A stretch of 60,323 nucleotides of DNA. Source: Dehalococcoidales bacterium. GTDB taxonomy: Bacteria > Chloroflexota > Dehalococcoidia > Dehalococcoidales > Fen-1064. The first letter of the stretch is position 1; every line of letters begins with the position of its first letter. The notes under the pieces were generated by a model. It had not been told where the DNA came from, ran no database searches, and saw only the letters and a list, made by a program, of their open reading frames with translations. Positions 16,184 to 60,231 of this stretch are shown piece by piece. The position numbers were made by a program, and so were the translations under genes. The DNA lies in the NCBI GenBank assembly GCA_030654965.1, contig JAURWL010000256.1, positions 1-60,323 on the forward strand, read 5' to 3'.

Positions 16184-17353
16184 CTATTTCTCGCTAAGTA
16201 GGTAATCAATCGCCCACTGAACACCATCAACTGTTTCAAAGTCGAGTTCAGTGTCAGGCTGAATGCCATTACCCTCGATAAGGTTCCCGTTCGGTGTCAC
16301 CCAGCGTGCGATGGTGATATAAATGCCCGAGCCATCAGATAGCTTCAGCAGCTGGTTCACACTCCCTTTACCATAGGTTTTTTCTCCAGCAATAAGCGCC
16401 CTTTTGTAGTCTTGTAACGCTCCCGCTAGAATTTCACTCGCGCTGGCGCTGTAATGGTCAACGAGCACCACCATCGGCAGGCTAGTTTTGTATGCCAGCG
16501 GATTGACAGAATCGGAATCCTTACTGCTGTCAGGATAGACCACGCTGACGACCACGCCCTTGTCCAGAAAATGGCTTGCCACCTGAATGACCGTTGAAAG
16601 CAAACCACCCGGGTTACTACGAAGGTCAAGCACGATGCCTTTTGCTTTGTTATCAGATATTGTTTTTAAAACCGACACCAGCTCATCATCGGTACGCTCT
16701 GTGAAGTTGGTGATAGTGATATGGGCATAATCACCCTTCATCTCTAGAGTGACGGATGGAATCTTTATTTCCGCCCGGATAATTTCCAGCGTTACCGGCT
16801 CAGCATCGTCTTTGTGAAGCACGGTAAGTTTGACCGGTGTGCCCTTTGGTCCCCTAATCAGCAGGACAACCTCAGTCACACTCATATCTATAGTTGTCTT
16901 CCCATCAACTTCCAGAATAATATCGCCGGATTTAATACCCGCTTCAGCTGCCGGGGTATCAGGAATTGGCGCAATTACAGTGACTCTACCATTTTCCGAC
17001 CCCACATACGCACCGATACCCTCAAACTGTCCGGCAAAATCGCTGACACTCATCGCGTATTGTTCTTGTGTCAGATAGGCGCTATAGGGGTCATTCAGCC
17101 CCTGCACCAAACCCTTGAGAATACCTTCATTCATCTTCTGAGTATCAATCTTGTCCGGTTCAACATACTCTTTCAGAATAATTTGGTAGGCTTCTTCCAG
17201 AAGTTTCAAATTCAGTTCCTGATTTGTATTCTGGGTCGTATTCGAATTAGAGGCGGGTTTGAAAATGTCCAGCGTACACCCGCCGATGAAAGACAGTCCC
17301 AGCGCAATAATTATGCAAAGCGAAATAAGTGCCGTTCTCATTTTTTTAGTCAT
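16184..17353 (-). CDS. S41 C-terminal processing peptidase (CtpA-like)
   Basis: DPYS, GIGA PDZ loop, DLRSNPGG, SASASE, TYGKGSV, N-terminal hydrophobic segment. Confidence 0.93.
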   Translation of the reverse strand: MTKKMRTALISLCIIIALGLSFIGGCTLDIFKPASNSNTTQNTNQELNLKLLEEAYQIILKEYVEPDKIDTQKMNEGILKGLVQGLNDPYSAYLTQEQYAMSVSDFAGQFEGIGAYVGSENGRVTVIAPIPDTPAAEAGIKSGDIILEVDGKTTIDMSVTEVVLLIRGPKGTPVKLTVLHKDDAEPVTLEIIRAEIKIPSVTLEMKGDYAHITITNFTERTDDELVSVLKTISDNKAKGIVLDLRSNPGGLLSTVIQVASHFLDKGVVVSVVYPDSSKDSDSVNPLAYKTSLPMVVLVDHYSASASEILAGALQDYKRALIAGEKTYGKGSVNQLLKLSDGSGIYITIARWVTPNGNLIEGNGIQPDTELDFETVDGVQWAIDYLLSEK

Positions 17354-17534
17354 AAATGTACCTCTCTCCTGTGAAAATCATAACAGATAGACCACTCAAA
17401 CTCTAATTCTGAAGTCGCAAACAAAGCCTGATTTCAAATCATCGAACATGTGAAATCTCTTGTGTCAAACAGACGATTGAGCAATAGTATCAAGCCTGAG
17501 TGACAATAATACTTGATAAGATTTTATATGCAGA

Positions 17535-17894
17535 GGGCCAAGTAGACCTGTAAGCCGAGTTCTGTATCCCGATAGCATCGGGACGGTGACCATCTATCTA
17601 GCCCCGATGTTACCACCGGGGTCAAGCGACCAACCCGGGGACTGGCCGGGCGTCCATATATCCCCCTATTTGGTCTTGCTCCGGGTGTGGTTTTCCCAGC
17701 CGAACGGTTACCCGTCCGCTGGTGAGCTCTTACCTCACCATTTCACCCTTACCCCGATTCATCATCGGGGCGGTATGTTTCTGTGGCACTTTCCGTAGGG
17801 TCGCCCCTCCCGGGTGTTACCCGGCACCCTGCCCGGTAGAGCTCGGACTTTCCTCCCCGATTTAGTCAGGGCGGTCACCCGGTCTACTTGTCCC
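17535..17894 (-). ncRNA. rnpB: RNase P RNA (bacterial type A)
   Basis: Minus strand has GAGGAAAGTCCGAGC near the 5' end and ACAGAACTCGGCTTA near the 3' end; terminal helix CAAGTAGACC/GGTCTACTTG. Confidence 0.95.
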
Positions 17895-17900
17895 ACCACC

Positions 17901-17929
17901 ACTCTAGTCTACCGTGTAAAATAAGTCAA
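17901..17929 (-). promoter_or_regulatory. Sigma70 promoter currently in front of rnpB
   Basis: TTGACT-17 nt-TAGAGT immediately before the RNA 5' end. Confidence 0.7.
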
Positions 17930-17982
17930 TCATTAATTCTAAATAGTCATTATGGTAATTACTTTATGCAGTGCTTGACTGC

Positions 17983-18086
17983 TTTTGCTAACGGTTTGCT
18001 AATACTTTTTTAAAGGGGATTAAAAATTAGCCTCAAAAATGCCATGCCTAGATATTACCAAATATGCCTCTTTTGTAGCTAAAGTG
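17983..18086 (+). repeat. Diverged ~104-bp direct repeat, copy 1
   Basis: TTTTGCTAACGGTTTGCTAA, TAGCCTCAAAAATGC and GCTAAAGTG recur at a constant +2486 offset. Confidence 0.85.
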
Positions 18087-18211
18087 AGATATTACTTATA
18101 AAAGAGATACAGGAGGTACATCGTGCCGGGAAGTAGAATAATCGTGTAGTCTGAATACTCTAAAAGGTTATGCTTTGCCTAAATTCACCAATAGTGATAA
18201 AATTGGCACAA

Positions 18212-18817
18212 TCAAAAGGGCTTCTCTTTGATGCATTCCTTAAACGTATTCCATGACGGTTCGCAACTCTCTTCTAAATCGAATTCATAATTACTTAGAG
18301 CCCAAATATTTACTAAGCCCTGAACCATTCCAAAAAAGAGTAATGCCGCTCCATGTAAATCCAAATCCTTACGTAGTTCACCTGATTTTATTCCTTTAGA
18401 TAGGAGACCTTTAATACCGACTACATATTTATCAATAATTTCGGATATTCTCCTGTTCAGTTTCTTATCACCAAGGCTGATAATTTCAGCAATGACTTGA
18501 AATGAGATGCCCTGCCTTTGTTTAATAGCGGATAGATGCCCCTTGAGGATATTATCTAGAATTTCTAAGCAGGAATCACTGTTAGCGATGCTTGTCGTTA
18601 TATCGCCTAGCAGGTCATCCTCAATAATGTCTGCGAGTAGAGATAATATGTCCCGTTTGCTATTAAAATGTCTATAGACAGCGCCTTCAGAGAGACCTAC
18701 TTCTTTAGCAATGGCTCTCACAGTGATATTCTCACTGCCACGCTTTATAATCAGTCTTTTAGCGGCGGTTACAATCTGGTCCTTCCTGATTGCCGTTGTT
18801 CTGCGTCGTTGTACCAT
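18212..18817 (-). CDS. TetR/AcrR family regulator
   Basis: HTH ITVRAIAKEVGLSEGAVYRHFNSKRDI. Confidence 0.93.
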   Translation of the reverse strand: MVQRRRTTAIRKDQIVTAAKRLIIKRGSENITVRAIAKEVGLSEGAVYRHFNSKRDILSLLADIIEDDLLGDITTSIANSDSCLEILDNILKGHLSAIKQRQGISFQVIAEIISLGDKKLNRRISEIIDKYVVGIKGLLSKGIKSGELRKDLDLHGAALLFFGMVQGLVNIWALSNYEFDLEESCEPSWNTFKECIKEKPF

Positions 18818-18909
18818 CTATCGCTCCTTTAGGCATAGAGCTCATTCAGGATACATGATATTTATTCTACACGACTGCTTGATTATACCACGTAGATAAA
18901 TAATCTATT

Positions 18910-19173
18910 CTAGCGCAGAATTAACCATAAGATAAAAATCATGAGAAGTATTATTCCAGCAAGAATAGCTATGCGTTTGATTTCAGGGAGCACATTATTA
19001 TGTTCAGCCATCATTTTCATTGTCATCGCTGTGTTTTTAGGCAAGGGGGGTTTAGTCGAAGATAGAGGTTCTACCGCTGTTGGCTTCTGCGCTATCTTTT
19101 CTGATGGTTGAATAGAACGAACACTTTGCCCTTTGTTATATCTCGTTTTCTTTTTCCGTGGTTTTTTGCTCAT
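18910..19173 (-). CDS. Small hypothetical protein, basic N-terminus and C-terminal TM anchor
   Basis: MSKKPRKKK...EIKRIAILAGIILLMIFILWLILR; GGAG before ATG 19173. Confidence 0.7.
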   Translation of the reverse strand: MSKKPRKKKTRYNKGQSVRSIQPSEKIAQKPTAVEPLSSTKPPLPKNTAMTMKMMAEHNNVLPEIKRIAILAGIILLMIFILWLILR

Positions 19174-19214
19174 GTAGTACTCCACACCTATTTTCGCACA
19201 GTTATTGACAATGT

Positions 19215-19333
19215 AGTATGTAATCAATTACTTACTATAAGATAATACGCAACTTCAGTTTTGTCAAATCATTGATAAGGTAATTTGACAATAAAGACGG
19301 TTCTATAATAATGTAAGTAAACAATCACATACA
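19215..19333. promoter_or_regulatory. Divergent promoters with two related 22-bp imperfect palindromes (putative TetR operators)
   Basis: AGTATGTAATCAATTACTTACT (19215-19236) and TGTAAGTAAACAATCACATACA (19312-19333); minus-strand TTGACA-17-TATCTT; plus-strand TTGACA at 19285. Confidence 0.6.
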
Positions 19334-19422
19334 AATCATCTCGGCGTTATTATTATGTTAACGTCAGAGTATCGCTGAAGTATCTAAAAAACTTTCAATA
19401 TTGAGCAAGGGGGGAAAACAAT

Positions 19423-20436
19423 TTGGTCTGGATACAGTTTGCTGTATGCCTCGCGATAATCATTATCGCTGGCACGCGACTACCAAAATATGGTGATATT
19501 ATCGCTGAAAAAACAGGACTGGGACATGTCTGGGTTGGTATCGTTCTGCTTGCTACGGTGACATCCTTGCCAGAAGTTGCCACGGGAATCAGTTCCGTAG
19601 CTATAATACAAAGCCCTGATTTAGCTATCGGTGACCTTTTTGGTGCAAGCCTGATAAACCTAGGTATTATTGCTGTTATTGATGTTCTTTATAAAAAAGG
19701 GCCGGTTCTCCATCTCCTGGGGACTGGAATCGTCCTGGCTACTATTTTAAGTATGTTATTGATTGCAGCCGCGGCAGCCTCTATCCTTCTGGCACACAGC
19801 GGGTTCAACCTGAATGTTTTCGGCTTTATCGGTATCTATTCTCCCATCCTATTTTGTCTGTTTTTAATATCGCAGTATATGTTATTCCGCTTTAAAACGA
19901 GGCAACCGGATACAACTGACAATGCTAATTCTCAAAGTACAACCTATGCATCCGTATCTTTGAAGAGAACCTTATTGTATTTCGGTCTCACTGCGATAGC
20001 TATTGTCGGTGCCGGGATATGGCTGGGATTTATCGGTGACCAAATTTCGAACTCTACTGGTTTGAAAGCAAGTTTTGTGGGAACATTATTCCTTGCTTTT
20101 AGTACCACTGCTCCTGAGATGGTGGTATCTATCTCAGCCGCACGAATGGGAGCCTTGGAGATGGCGGTTGCCAATGTTGTTGGTAGTAACTTGTTCAATA
20201 TAGGGGTAATCATTTTCTTAATCGACCTGTTTTTCAGTGAGGGACCAATATTAAAGTATGTGAGTACCGGTCACATTCTCACAGCATTGTTTGCTTTAAT
20301 GATGAGCAGTATTGTGATTATCGGCATTATCTTCCGGCCTAAGTTCTGGATGAAGAGTTGGGTAGGTATGGATACTACCTTCATCGCTATTTTATATATT
20401 GCTGCTCTTGTGACACTCTACTTTTTTGGAAGATAA
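19423..20436 (+). CDS. Na+/Ca2+ exchanger (CaCA) family antiporter
   Basis: Alpha repeats ATVTSLPE and AFSTTAPE, ANVVGSNLFN; TTG start. Confidence 0.9.
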   Translation: MVWIQFAVCLAIIIIAGTRLPKYGDIIAEKTGLGHVWVGIVLLATVTSLPEVATGISSVAIIQSPDLAIGDLFGASLINLGIIAVIDVLYKKGPVLHLLGTGIVLATILSMLLIAAAAASILLAHSGFNLNVFGFIGIYSPILFCLFLISQYMLFRFKTRQPDTTDNANSQSTTYASVSLKRTLLYFGLTAIAIVGAGIWLGFIGDQISNSTGLKASFVGTLFLAFSTTAPEMVVSISAARMGALEMAVANVVGSNLFNIGVIIFLIDLFFSEGPILKYVSTGHILTALFALMMSSIVIIGIIFRPKFWMKSWVGMDTTFIAILYIAALVTLYFFGR

Positions 20437-20468
20437 AGATTATCAATGACTCAGATCCAGGCTATTAT

Positions 20469-20572
20469 TTTTGCTAACGGTTTGCTAACGGATTTTTATA
20501 AGTGAAAATAAAATAGCCTCAAAAATGCTATTACTTATTGTTGGCAATAGTGGCATTTTCAAGGCTAAAGTG
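20469..20572 (+). repeat. Diverged ~104-bp direct repeat, copy 2
   Basis: Colinear with 17983-18086; contains tandem TTTGCTAACGG; ends 15 bp before the duplicated rnpB core. Confidence 0.85.
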
Positions 20573-20587
20573 GGTGAATCGGCGAAA

Positions 20588-20634
20588 CTACTTGTCCCAC
20601 AATCACTCTAATACAGCCTGATAAACAAGTCAAT
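20588..20634 (-). repeat. Second copy of the rnpB promoter and first bases
   Basis: Minus strand TTGACT-17-TAGAGT-GATT-GTGGGACAAGTAG. Confidence 0.8.
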
Positions 20635-20791
20635 GTCAGAGAACAATCACTTCTTGTGTGCAGGTTGAAATGATGATGGGGCATTCCTACTTCATTTGTG
20701 CATAGATACCCGCTTTATCATTTTGCGTAGGCAAATAATACCTGATGGAAAAATTCAACCAAATCGGAACGGAACCCTCAGTTTTTGCCTG

Positions 20792-20820
20792 TTGACTGAA
20801 TACGGATTGTCAGATACTAT
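20792..20820 (+). promoter_or_regulatory. Sigma70 promoter for the P-type ATPase operon
   Basis: TTGACT-17-TACTAT. Confidence 0.55.
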
Positions 20821-20857
20821 TGATAAATGGACTTGAAACCGGAGGCACATAAAGAAG

Positions 20858-23635
20858 ATGTGGCATGATAAAACCATAACTGACGTTGTCAAATCTTTAG
20901 GCTCAAGTTTACATGGTTTGACATCTGATGAAGCGAAACGCCGGCTCGATGAAGTGGGACCCAATGAAATAAAACAGGAGAAAAAAATATCTCCTTGGGC
21001 TCTCCTTCTCAGTCAATTTAAAAGTATCCTTGTAATCATCCTACTGGTTGCTGTCGCTCTTTCGGCTGTCATCGGTATCGTGAACTGGGAGCCAGGTGCA
21101 GGTCTTCCGGAAGAAATCACAGACGCCATTGTGATTCTGGCTATCGTCATCGCCGTCGTCATTCTTGGTTTTATTCAAGAGTACCGCTCAGGGAAAGCCC
21201 TGGATGCCTTAAAAAAGATGGCGGCGCTGACTGCTACCGTCATTCGTGATGGCATTGAGAATGAAATTCCGGCATGGGAGCTTGTTCCCGGTGACATCGT
21301 AGTCTTAAGCACAGGCGATAGAATCCCCGCAGATTTACGCCTGATTGAATCCGCTAACCTCAGCACGCAGGAAGCCGCTCTCACCGGCGAATCTACCCCC
21401 ATTGAAAAAACTACTGCGGTCATTGACGGCATAGACATTTCTATCGGCGACCGTAAGAATATGGCTTACACCGGCACCGTGGTGACTTACGGTAGAGGCA
21501 GGGGTATTGTCGCAACTACCGGTATGCAAACCGAATTCGGCAAGATTGCCACCATGCTTCAAGACGTGGTGGAAGAAGAGACTCCTCTCCAGAAAAATCT
21601 GGGCAAAGTAGGCAAGATGCTCGGCATCGCCTGTATAGTTATTGTCGCAATTGTTGTGGTGATGAGCATCCTCAGAGGCCATATTACTTCCATAGACAAA
21701 ATTATGGACATGTTCATCTGGGGAGTCAGTCTGGCAGTTGCCGCCGTCCCGGAAGCTCTTCCGGCGGTTGTTGTTATCTCGCTCTCCATCGGCGTGCAAA
21801 AGATGGTAAAACGTCACGCTCTCGTCCGAAGGCTTTCGGCGGTTGAAACGCTCGGTTGCACTACTGTCATCTGCTCGGATAAAACCGGTACCCTGACGCA
21901 GGACCAGATGACAGTACGCCAAATCTATATAAACGGCAAACTGATTCATGTCACCGGCGCCGGTTACGAACCGAAAGGCGAATTTCAAATCGATGGTAAA
22001 CCTGTAAATCTTACGCAGGATACTACAACACAAACCCTGATGAAAATCAATACCCTCTGTAATGATACCCACCTGGTACAAACTGACGGCAAGTGGGAAA
22101 TCAAGGGAGACCCCACCGAAGGCGCCTTACTGGTTGTGGCGGCTAAAGCGGGTATCTCCCATGAGAAAGCAAATGAGGAATCACCACGGATTGATGAAAT
22201 CCCATTTTCGTCCGAGCGCAAACGGATGACCACTGTCCATCAGAGTCCTGAAGGTAGAGTTGCTTATTCCAAAGGCGCGCCGGAGATTGTCCTTGATGCC
22301 TGTTCTTCCATTCTGGAAAATGGTCAAATGAAACCACTCACCGAGCAAGAAAGAACGCGTATTCTGGATGGCGCCCGGTATATGGCAGAAGATGCACTAA
22401 GAGTACTGGGGATGGCGTACAAACCGCTTCAAAGTACAACAACCGATAAGAACGAATATGAGAAATCAATGGTTTTTGCAGGACTGGTGGGTATGATAGA
22501 CCCGCCGCGCCCTGAAGTAAAGGAAGCCATCAAACTCTGTGAAAAAGCCGGTATTAAGTCCGTAATGATTACCGGGGACCACAAGATTACAGCCAGCGCT
22601 ATTGCCCGGGAACTGGGAATTTTGAAGAACGGGATTGCTATCACCGGCGCCGAACTGGATAAACTGAGCGATGCCGAATATGAGAAGATGGTTGGCAATA
22701 TCGAAGTATACGCACGCGTCTCGCCATCCCATAAACTCAAAGTGATTGAAGCCTTCGGCAAACGCGGTGACGTGGTAGCTATGACCGGTGACGGCGTCAA
22801 TGATGCGCCCGCCCTGAAGAAGGCAGATATCGGTATAGCAATGGGCATTTCAGGCACTGATGTCAGCAAAGAAGCGGCAGCGATGGTTCTGACCGATGAT
22901 AATTTTGCTTCAATTGTCGCCGCCGTAGAAGAAGGCAGAGGTATCTTCCAGAACATAAAGAAATACTTAATGTTTTTGCTCTCTGCCAATGTCGGGGAAG
23001 TGCTCATTATGTTTATTGCCAGCTTACTGGCAATGCCTCTGCCGCTCGTGACTATACATTTGCTCTGGGTCAATCTCACCACAGATGGTCTACCTGCCCT
23101 AGCGCTAGCGGTCGACCCTAAAGACCCGGGCATCATGGAGCGTCCTCCTCGTGACCCCAAATCAAGTATTTTCACAAAGAACGTGCTTGTTACTATCGCT
23201 GTCATTGGTATCATCATGGCGGCAACGATGATTTCTATGTTTCTCTGGAAGCTCGGCACTGAAACCGGTTCCTGGCGCAATGCCAGCGACCTGCTGGTAG
23301 AAGAAGCACAGACTATGGTCCTGTGCACTATGGTTATCTTCGAGCTATTTACGGCGCTGGCTTGCCGCTCCGAAATTCACAGCTACTTTAAAATTGGAGT
23401 CTTCAGTAATAAGTGGCTTATCTACGCTAACCTCTCATCGCTGACGCTGTTACTGGCAATTCTCTATATTCCCGCTTTGCAGAATCCATTCCACGTGCTA
23501 CCCATCGGACTGGAGGATTGGATAGTTATTCTCCCGGTGTCCTTGACCGGCTTTGTAGCGGTGGAGCTTGTCAAGGTATTTTTCCGGCGCAGTGGCATGA
23601 ATAGAACTCCTGAAAAGAAAGAGGTAAATAAATGA
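20858..23635 (+). CDS. P-type ATPase, type IIA-like (probably Ca2+)
   Basis: LTGES, VPEALP, DKTGTLT, KGAPE, GDGVNDAPAL, SANVGE, LWVNLTTDG. Confidence 0.93.
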   Translation: MWHDKTITDVVKSLGSSLHGLTSDEAKRRLDEVGPNEIKQEKKISPWALLLSQFKSILVIILLVAVALSAVIGIVNWEPGAGLPEEITDAIVILAIVIAVVILGFIQEYRSGKALDALKKMAALTATVIRDGIENEIPAWELVPGDIVVLSTGDRIPADLRLIESANLSTQEAALTGESTPIEKTTAVIDGIDISIGDRKNMAYTGTVVTYGRGRGIVATTGMQTEFGKIATMLQDVVEEETPLQKNLGKVGKMLGIACIVIVAIVVVMSILRGHITSIDKIMDMFIWGVSLAVAAVPEALPAVVVISLSIGVQKMVKRHALVRRLSAVETLGCTTVICSDKTGTLTQDQMTVRQIYINGKLIHVTGAGYEPKGEFQIDGKPVNLTQDTTTQTLMKINTLCNDTHLVQTDGKWEIKGDPTEGALLVVAAKAGISHEKANEESPRIDEIPFSSERKRMTTVHQSPEGRVAYSKGAPEIVLDACSSILENGQMKPLTEQERTRILDGARYMAEDALRVLGMAYKPLQSTTTDKNEYEKSMVFAGLVGMIDPPRPEVKEAIKLCEKAGIKSVMITGDHKITASAIARELGILKNGIAITGAELDKLSDAEYEKMVGNIEVYARVSPSHKLKVIEAFGKRGDVVAMTGDGVNDAPALKKADIGIAMGISGTDVSKEAAAMVLTDDNFASIVAAVEEGRGIFQNIKKYLMFLLSANVGEVLIMFIASLLAMPLPLVTIHLLWVNLTTDGLPALALAVDPKDPGIMERPPRDPKSSIFTKNVLVTIAVIGIIMAATMISMFLWKLGTETGSWRNASDLLVEEAQTMVLCTMVIFELFTALACRSEIHSYFKIGVFSNKWLIYANLSSLTLLLAILYIPALQNPFHVLPIGLEDWIVILPVSLTGFVAVELVKVFFRRSGMNRTPEKKEVNK

Positions 23636-60154: not shown

Positions 60155-60231
60155 TGGTGGGCCATTGTGGATTCGAACCACAGACCCCAGTCTTATCAGG
60201 ACTGTGCTCTAACCAACTGAGCTAATGGCCC
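60155..60231 (-). tRNA. tRNA-Ile(GAT)
   Basis: GGGCCATTAGCTCAGTTGGTTAGAGC...CAGTC-CTGATAA-GACTG...GGTTCGAATCC...TGGCCCACCA; encoded CCA. Confidence 0.96.

Follow-up and report, generated by a model that had tools for sequence, protein, structure and literature searches.

An integrase-less islet between two promoter copies at the 5′ end of the gene for RNase P RNA in an uncultured Dehalococcoidales bacterium

Results

The rnpB locus

The window, meaning the whole stretch of DNA analyzed here, is the complete 60-kb contig C134 (60,323 nucleotides (nt), JAURWL010000256.1) of a metagenome-assembled genome, G000, from an uncultured groundwater bacterium of the order Dehalococcoidales; the assembly comprises 1.85 Mb in 257 contigs and is 86% complete. 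It contains rnpB, the gene for the bacterial class A RNase P RNA, of which there is only one copy in the assembly, and, next to the 5′ end of this gene, a small islet with three open reading frames (ORFs) bounded by two copies of a 13-nt core and of a promoter (Table 1).

Table 1 Features of the rnpB locus (coordinates are those of the window; aa, amino acids)
Feature	Coordinates	Strand	Basis or remarks
Flank: S41 (Ctp-type) peptidase	16184..17353	-	synteny with rnpB shared by relatives
rnpB, bacterial class A RNase P RNA, read as the restored target	17535..17890	-	RF00010, 308.1 bits, model 1-367
Core copy 1 (rnpB strand: GTGGGACAAGTAG)	17884..17896	-	exact 13-nt repeat
P1, predicted promoter now before rnpB, TTGACT-17-TAGAGT, read as element-borne	17901..17929	-	motif match; 94-nt spacing to the arm repeats kept in G002
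D1a, arm module by the restored gene	17983..18086	+	tandem GCTAACGG repeats 17985-18002, then imperfect inverted repeat
Cargo: TetR-family regulator, 201 aa	18212..18817	-	PF00440 9.5e-15, PF08359 3.6e-13
Cargo: 105-aa ORF without family	18910..19227	-	Pfam search without match
Cargo: membrane protein of the Na+/Ca2+ exchanger family, 337 aa	19423..20436	+	PF01699 2.7e-28, two stretches
D1b, arm module by the displaced fragment	20469..20587	+	tandem GCTAACGG repeats 20471-20491, hairpin 20514-20567, conserved block GGCTAAAGTGGGTGA
Core copy 2, read as the displaced first ~11 nt of rnpB	20588..20600	-	repeat comparison, relatives' alignment
P2, predicted promoter, TTGACT-17-TAGAGT, read as the displaced native rnpB promoter	20605..20633	-	orthology to the single promoters of G019 and G014 and to the DUF6612-adjacent copy of G002
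Flank: P-type cation ATPase	20858..23635	+	adjoins rnpB in the empty-site genome G014

The core, CTACTTGTCCCAC, is exact in both places and belongs to a longer repeat of 47 nt with 79% identity (17884–17930 vs 20588–20634), the starts of the two copies being 2704 nt apart and the second copy lying upstream of the intact rnpB in the same orientation. In each copy the minus strand carries the TTGACT-17-TAGAGT promoter with conserved boxes and a spacer of its own, read from 17929 to 17901 and from 20633 to 20605. On the rnpB strand the GTGGGACAAGTAG block begins 6 nt past the −10 box, and in copy 1 it pairs with positions 17535–17548 (inverted repeat I9) as the 5′ strand of the RNA helix P1, so the inferred start of transcription and the initial ~11 nt of the RNA lie within it. 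In copy 2 the homology to rnpB ends directly after the 13-nt block. An earlier note, made from the sequence alone, had described a 13-bp core over the rnpB start bounding 2.7 kb of AT-rich DNA, with the same promoter boxes and different spacers in both copies, and both descriptions are accurate, the insert having a guanine-plus-cytosine (GC) content of 38.8% vs 48.5% for the window.

Inside the promoter pair and framing the cargo there is a second direct repeat, D1, of 104 nt with 71% identity (17983–18086 vs 20469–20572). Searching the whole 1.85-Mb assembly with the region 17884–18090 returned only the second promoter copy (E 1.7e-4) and the second D1 copy (E 1.9e-10). A third, decayed copy of the core after D1a (18090–18160) was judged by eye and was unconvincing.

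Contigs of the Logan collection from four sequencing runs were placed on the region 17000–21400 at 85% likeness, with unresolved stretches flagged as "between: not known". Two contigs of run X1, which possibly represents the same data as the assembly of the window, reproduce the junctions: one of 2163 nt covers 17828–19991 with 15 differences and includes the rnpB-side junction, and one of 298 nt covers 20385–20682 with 1 difference and includes the distal junction. As the window is one of the 257 contigs of a metagenome assembly, two places might in principle have been joined via a repeat, but such an artefact is hardly credible here: the exact repeats are just 13 and ~20 nt long, the X1 contigs span both junctions (with the reservation on their origin given above), and the independent genome G002 shows the same junction types.

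The ancestral promoter and the empty sites

The rnpB loci of 15 relatives were compared by eye, and further sets were checked by pattern search. The promoter and the 5′ end of the gene are conserved in the 15 loci as TTGACT-17-TAnAGT followed by TGGGtCAAGTAGACC. Apart from G002, 13 of the 14 loci have a single promoter with unrelated sequence upstream, and the remaining one (G027) has no clear TTGACT box; single promoters are found in G019, in G003, which belongs to the same genus as G000, and in 12 further relatives. In G019 a gene coding for a DUF6612 lipoprotein stops directly before the single rnpB promoter, and in G014 rnpB lies ~200 nt from the ATPase gene, again with a single promoter, which represents an empty site.

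The closest genome, G002, which is of the same genus as G000, has flanks 81–93% identical to those of the window and also contains two promoter copies, the distal one of which is located directly after the DUF6612 stop and is nearly the same in sequence as the promoter of G019 (alignment A1). Because this distal copy sits after DUF6612 just as the single promoter of G019 does, P2 is, on the basis of orthology, the ancestral rnpB promoter, and P1 came with the insert. The proposal that the native promoter had been displaced to 20588–20634 is therefore upheld.

Two contigs of run X3 skip the 2704 nt, joining 17897 to 20602 and 17899 to 20604, with shorter sides of 53 and 51 nt and depths of 7.6 and 9, respectively. 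The depth in this run is 11–25 on both flanks (14.8 on the left one) and ~0 over 18029–19351 and 19646–20527, and on the left flank a 17-kb contig differs at 4 of 417 nt, corresponding to a ~99% identical population. The two joints may represent native promoter alleles rather than the products of one fixed crossover. The search for an empty site in relatives suggested by the earlier note was thus successful, both for single-promoter genomes (G014, G019, G003 and 12 more) and for the X3 contigs joining 17897 to 20602.

The same data bear on the idea that the rnpB promoter was duplicated in tandem long ago and that unrelated genes were later gained between the copies, the two promoters and D1 being native regulatory DNA. 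This history would account for the identical two-promoter layout of G002 with other cargo and for the consensus promoter kept in both P2 copies. It is nevertheless very improbable and largely refuted by the single promoters in 13 of 14 relatives and in G003, by the X3 empty site with its ~99% identical left flank, by the presence of D1 beside tRNA fragments on other contigs (see below), and by the low GC content of the insert.

Two further observations concern the surroundings of the promoter. A contig of run X2 has 148 nt of the window sequence 20633–20782, between P2 and the ATPase promoter region, replaced by 16 other letters, and X2 also has the TetR gene (98%) and the exchanger gene (93%); an islet-bearing relative therefore has a different spacer between P2 and the ATPase gene. 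In G003 (L025, 4038–4390) the DUF6612 stop is separated from the single rnpB promoter by ~350 nt of unrelated sequence, self-complementary in part, and there is an M20 peptidase gene between the DUF6612 and ATPase genes.

End modules of the islet

Each D1 copy starts with two GCTAACGG units 11 nt apart (GCTAACGG-N3-GCTAACGG), and a full module consists of these repeats, an inverted repeat and the block GGCTAAAGTGGGTGA. The modules align over ~125 columns in five copies located next to three different targets (alignment A2), namely both modules of the window, the rnpB copy of G002, G002:C28 and G009:C24. The D1a repeats are 94 nt from the 5′ end of rnpB, with the spacing from P1 to the repeats being identical in G002, and they are followed by the D1a inverted repeat and the TetR gene, not by the end of an integrase gene.

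The minus strand of D1b folds into a hairpin of 21 bp with a U-run after it (z −3.5; none of 200 shuffles was equally good). With its loop limit of 8 nt, a simple terminator scan made no call at the hairpins of D1. Going by the D1b fold, the hairpin and the U-run may tentatively be regarded as a plausible terminator.

Arm repeats and a tyrosine integrase family in other genomes

A scan of the genome_contigs collection for the 19-mer TTTGCTAACGGWTTGCTAA, located at the beginning of both D1a and D1b, gave more than 122 places among the matches listed, compared with our own chance estimate of ~35. Eighty loci (L045–L124) were fetched for context; among them the motif recurs across phyla (Dehalococcoidia, Chloroflexia, Acidimicrobiia, Actinomycetes and Acidobacteria), at very different genomic GC contents. 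In 30 of them there is a tRNA gene within 200 nt upstream of the motif, whose 3′ end faces the motif in 26 cases and 5′ end in four, three of the latter with full-length integrases. In 16 of the 80, a tyrosine integrase gene whose product matches a profile built from seven of these integrases is located on the reverse strand directly after the motif, with its stop codon falling within the motif. The integrases of L074 and L057 possess Arm-DNA-bind_4, SAM_3 and Phage_integrase domains, and the family with GCTAACGG repeats (Arm-DNA-bind_4/SAM_3) is defined in the present work. The other 50 loci have no tRNA gene within 200 nt, many of them being conserved Acidimicrobiia contexts. The GCTAACGG repeats are best read as predicted integrase-proximal arm-type sites.

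Some of the loci are of a different kind. Two of the conserved Acidimicrobiia contexts contain the motif with neither tRNA nor integrase, and L116 and L117, from a record of Legionella gresilensis, carry many tandem and dispersed GCTAACGG-type units in 2 kb in an iteron-like arrangement, with neither a tRNA gene nor a family integrase nearby. The ending "...CCCCCGCTACCA" before the motif was considered as the end of a transfer-messenger RNA (tmRNA) gene and rejected, since ARAGORN assigns it to tRNA-Met.

The D1 module of G002:C28 abuts, in reverse orientation, positions 1–39 of tRNA-Ser(CGA) (97%, E 4e-16). This stretch is a displaced 5′ half with its cut in the anticodon loop, and an integrase C-terminal remnant is found 1.8 kb from the module. 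It is therefore with its D1 end that the element faces the displaced fragment, and the family shows the reversed polarity of the rnpB locus elsewhere too. A tRNA-Val 3′ fragment by the D1 module of G009:C24 was not significant (E 0.28) and was left unused. When the whole D1 module was sought in the genomes of the reversed tRNA loci L057, L060, L074 and L113, the arm repeats alone were matched.

A sister islet is present in the same genome on contig C233 (L207/L208), where an intact tRNA-Ala(TGC) is followed by a D1-like module, ~1.2 kb of cargo, a second repeat pair and a displaced 3′ part of tRNA-Ala (positions 32–76, 93%, E 3e-15). The cargo includes a gene for a NERD-domain protein and small ORFs, with no integrase. 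Integrase-less islets with arm modules at both ends thus recur, and D1a belongs to that form.

There is also a variant arm repeat, GGTCACGG-N3-GGTCACGG (GGTCAC-type), which replaces GCTAACGG (GCTAAC-type) in D1 modules of G002 (L024, L196). In G000:C203 (L217, 1325–2622) GGTCACGG repeats are located between tRNA-Val(TAC) and a gene coding for a family integrase of 386 aa with 49% identity to that of L074, the only full-length family integrase in G000. The comparison suggests two arm-repeat dialects, GCTAACGG and GGTCACGG, each matched to an integrase lineage.

Cargo and occurrence of the islet

The TetR gene shows 79% DNA identity to G037:C54, from a genome of another family, in which the 105-aa ORF is conserved together with it, and the exchanger gene shows 76% DNA identity to G037:C5. 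Judging by the GC content of 38.8% and by the best DNA matches in another family, where both parts are non-adjacent, the cargo is foreign. Between the divergently oriented 105-aa ORF and exchanger gene there is an inverted repeat, I1 (19216–19332, 29-nt arms, 72% complementary), and TTGACA-type promoters are matched on either strand; TetR may have its operator in this region.

The islets of G002 and G000 share the rnpB site and the 94-nt spacing from P1 to the repeats and differ in cargo, which in G002 (L024, 4780–5802) codes for a protein of 340 aa that has an ANT/KilAC antirepressor domain at its N-terminus and a C-terminal part without an assigned domain. Because the cargo and the distal repeat type differ between the two genomes and a ~99% identical population lacks the islet, independent or repeated use of the rnpB site seems to fit better than one ancient insertion.

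Discussion

The arrangement is probably the result of site-specific integration of a mobile element of the tyrosine integrase family described above at the 5′ end of rnpB, with the promoter being swapped in the process. The attachment site of the element would have had the order D1b–core–P1–D1a, holding a look-alike of the rnpB promoter and of the first ~11 nt of the RNA, and recombination within or beside the shared block GTGGGACAAGTAG would have separated the gene from its native promoter by the element. After integration rnpB would be driven by P1, because the gene is present once and no promoter other than P1 remains beside it, and P2 with 11 nt of rnpB would be left 2.7 kb upstream, pointing into the element, where the D1b hairpin and U-run probably stop its transcripts. 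The islet itself would be what is left of a decayed element, or else a mini-element that relies for its movement on an integrase encoded elsewhere. The earlier suggestion that the element had supplied a replacement rnpB promoter agrees with the orthology of P2, by which P1 came with the insert, and P1 would then be the active one.

Several results weigh against this explanation. There is no integrase in the islet, the Pfam search of the three ORFs giving TetR, no match and Na_Ca_ex. A six-frame hmmsearch for an integrase remnant with a family profile built from seven of the motif-adjacent integrases gave a best E-value of 7.8 in the window, which is not significant, and 2.8 in G002 and 0.12 in G003; tblastn with family integrases gave no match below E 0.17. 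A 14-residue stretch by the G002 arm repeats that resembled an integrase C-terminus by eye was dropped, the profile giving E 2.8 and tblastn nothing. No integrase cognate to the GCTAAC-type repeats was found in the assembled 86% of G000. As a DNA query against 363 genomes of the order, the islet matched by its flanks only in G002, with no integrase-bearing element at rnpB; the pattern of arm repeat, gap and rnpB 5′ end was found in one of 401 genomes of the class sample, G000 itself, and in one contig of the metagenome_contigs collection, probably of the G002 lineage. The minus-strand folds of D1a (z −0.9) and of the G002 copy (z −0.7) are not significant, and the distal module of G002 is of the GGTCAC type with the rnpB-side module being of the GCTAAC type, so the two islets may differ in history. 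As for the X3 joints, they fall 1 and 3 nt past the 13-nt core, which leaves the crossover point unfixed, and these contigs rest on the 85%-likeness placement with its "between: not known" flag.

The earlier note had taken the islet for an integrative element and proposed a search for integrase-bearing elements with the same core. The first view stands insofar as the end modules of an integrase family are present and falls short in that neither an integrase nor a significant remnant lies inside, and the search at rnpB in the order, the class sample and the metagenomes brought up none beyond the G000/G002 lineage.

The lack of an integrase in the islet would also suit Campbell-type homologous or illegitimate recombination, in which circular or linear DNA carrying the rnpB promoter region of a relative inserts with no integrase involved, and the slight difference between the X3 joints (17897/20602 and 17899/20604) is more like homology-driven events or allelic variation. 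This route is nonetheless unlikely: for RecA the shared segment of 47 nt (79% identity, 13 nt of it exact) is very short, long near-identical homology was not encountered, and the D1 modules, which abut tRNA fragments or integrase genes elsewhere, are not predicted by homologous recombination. With integration by a tyrosine integrase as the preferred explanation, the X3 empty site is compatible with mobility by an integrase encoded elsewhere, without being a demonstration of it, and might also have arisen by excision in the X3 lineage.

A more general reading, which we put forward only tentatively and consider doubtful, is that the islet belongs to a class of integrase-less cassettes in Dehalococcoidales, captured and released in trans by family integrases at rnpB, tRNA-Ser and tRNA-Ala cores. 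Such a cassette would have a two-sided attachment site, with D1 modules around a short look-alike of the target, and would bring a replacement promoter in the case of 5′-side targets; its handling would resemble that of integron cassettes, and the GCTAACGG and GGTCACGG dialects would pair each cassette with its integrase. If so, the difference in cargo between G000 and G002 and the empty site would reflect ongoing turnover at an essential ribozyme gene.

Zhao and Williams (2002) are said to be a source on tyrosine-integrase islands within the genes for tRNA and tmRNA with a displaced 5′ fragment. Among the islands that are compared with the rnpB islet here are the reversed tDNA islands of Islander, Table 1 of which lists a displaced 5′ fragment for 159 of 3919 tRNA islands (PMC4383910). 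As far as that description goes, an intact target RNA gene and a co-oriented displaced 5′ fragment bound the insert in both cases, the gene is restored by the element, which has to bring a promoter for it, arm-type repeats are located by the junctions and the site is empty in relatives. The rnpB islet differs from them in its target, which is rnpB (RF00010) instead of a tRNA or tmRNA gene (the sole tRNA gene of the window being at 60155–60231), and in that only ~11 nt of the RNA are replaced, so that it is essentially a promoter swap. Islander is described as accepting lengths of 2–200 kb and requiring an integrase gene within the island (PMC4383910); the 2704 nt of the islet are within that range, but the islet would be rejected for want of an integrase. 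An element-supplied 5′ part is thus known from 159 of the 3919 Islander islands (PMC4383910, Table 1), and what remains of the "unusual attB strategy" named in the earlier note is the rnpB target and the replacement of almost nothing but the promoter.

Compared with the elements of the integrase family itself, the islet shares the tandem GCTAACGG-N3-GCTAACGG repeats within ~100 nt of the restored gene and the D1 module abutting the displaced fragment, but it has no integrase gene ending in or after the repeats, as is the case in 16 of the 80 loci elsewhere. The islands of dusA-specific integrases, as presented in PMC4482086, likewise integrate at the 5′ end of a housekeeping gene; there, however, the target codes for a protein and the integrase is of a different family and present in the island. 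In Dehalococcoides, a genus of the same class, 15 ssrA islands without an integration module are described, with "cis-mobilizable elements" being discussed (PMC3146451). Going by that account, they are also small cargo islets with attachment-site repeats and no recombinase genes, but they are located at the ssrA 3′ end and use a serine-recombinase (DsiB) system. A link to the ssrA islands was considered and dropped on account of this reliance on a serine recombinase. Like cis-mobilizable elements, the rnpB islet has attachment-site-like sequences at both ends and no recombination genes.

In a literature search rnpB did not come up as an attachment site in any paper, the candidate papers citing rnpB as a phylogenetic marker only, and no paper containing the arm motif strings was found.

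At this locus a promoter of foreign origin would have taken over the transcription of an essential single-copy gene, rnpB. Another gene would thus be added to the RNA genes exploited by integrases, and the reversed solution, with the promoter and the 5′ end supplied by the element, would be seen in its most extreme form. Such islands would escape tools that demand an integrase or a target in a tRNA gene. The D1 module and the two repeat dialects provide testable sites for a widespread, uncharacterized integrase family of uncultured Chloroflexota and Actinomycetota, and such pairs of integrase and site could become genetic tools for organisms that have few or none.

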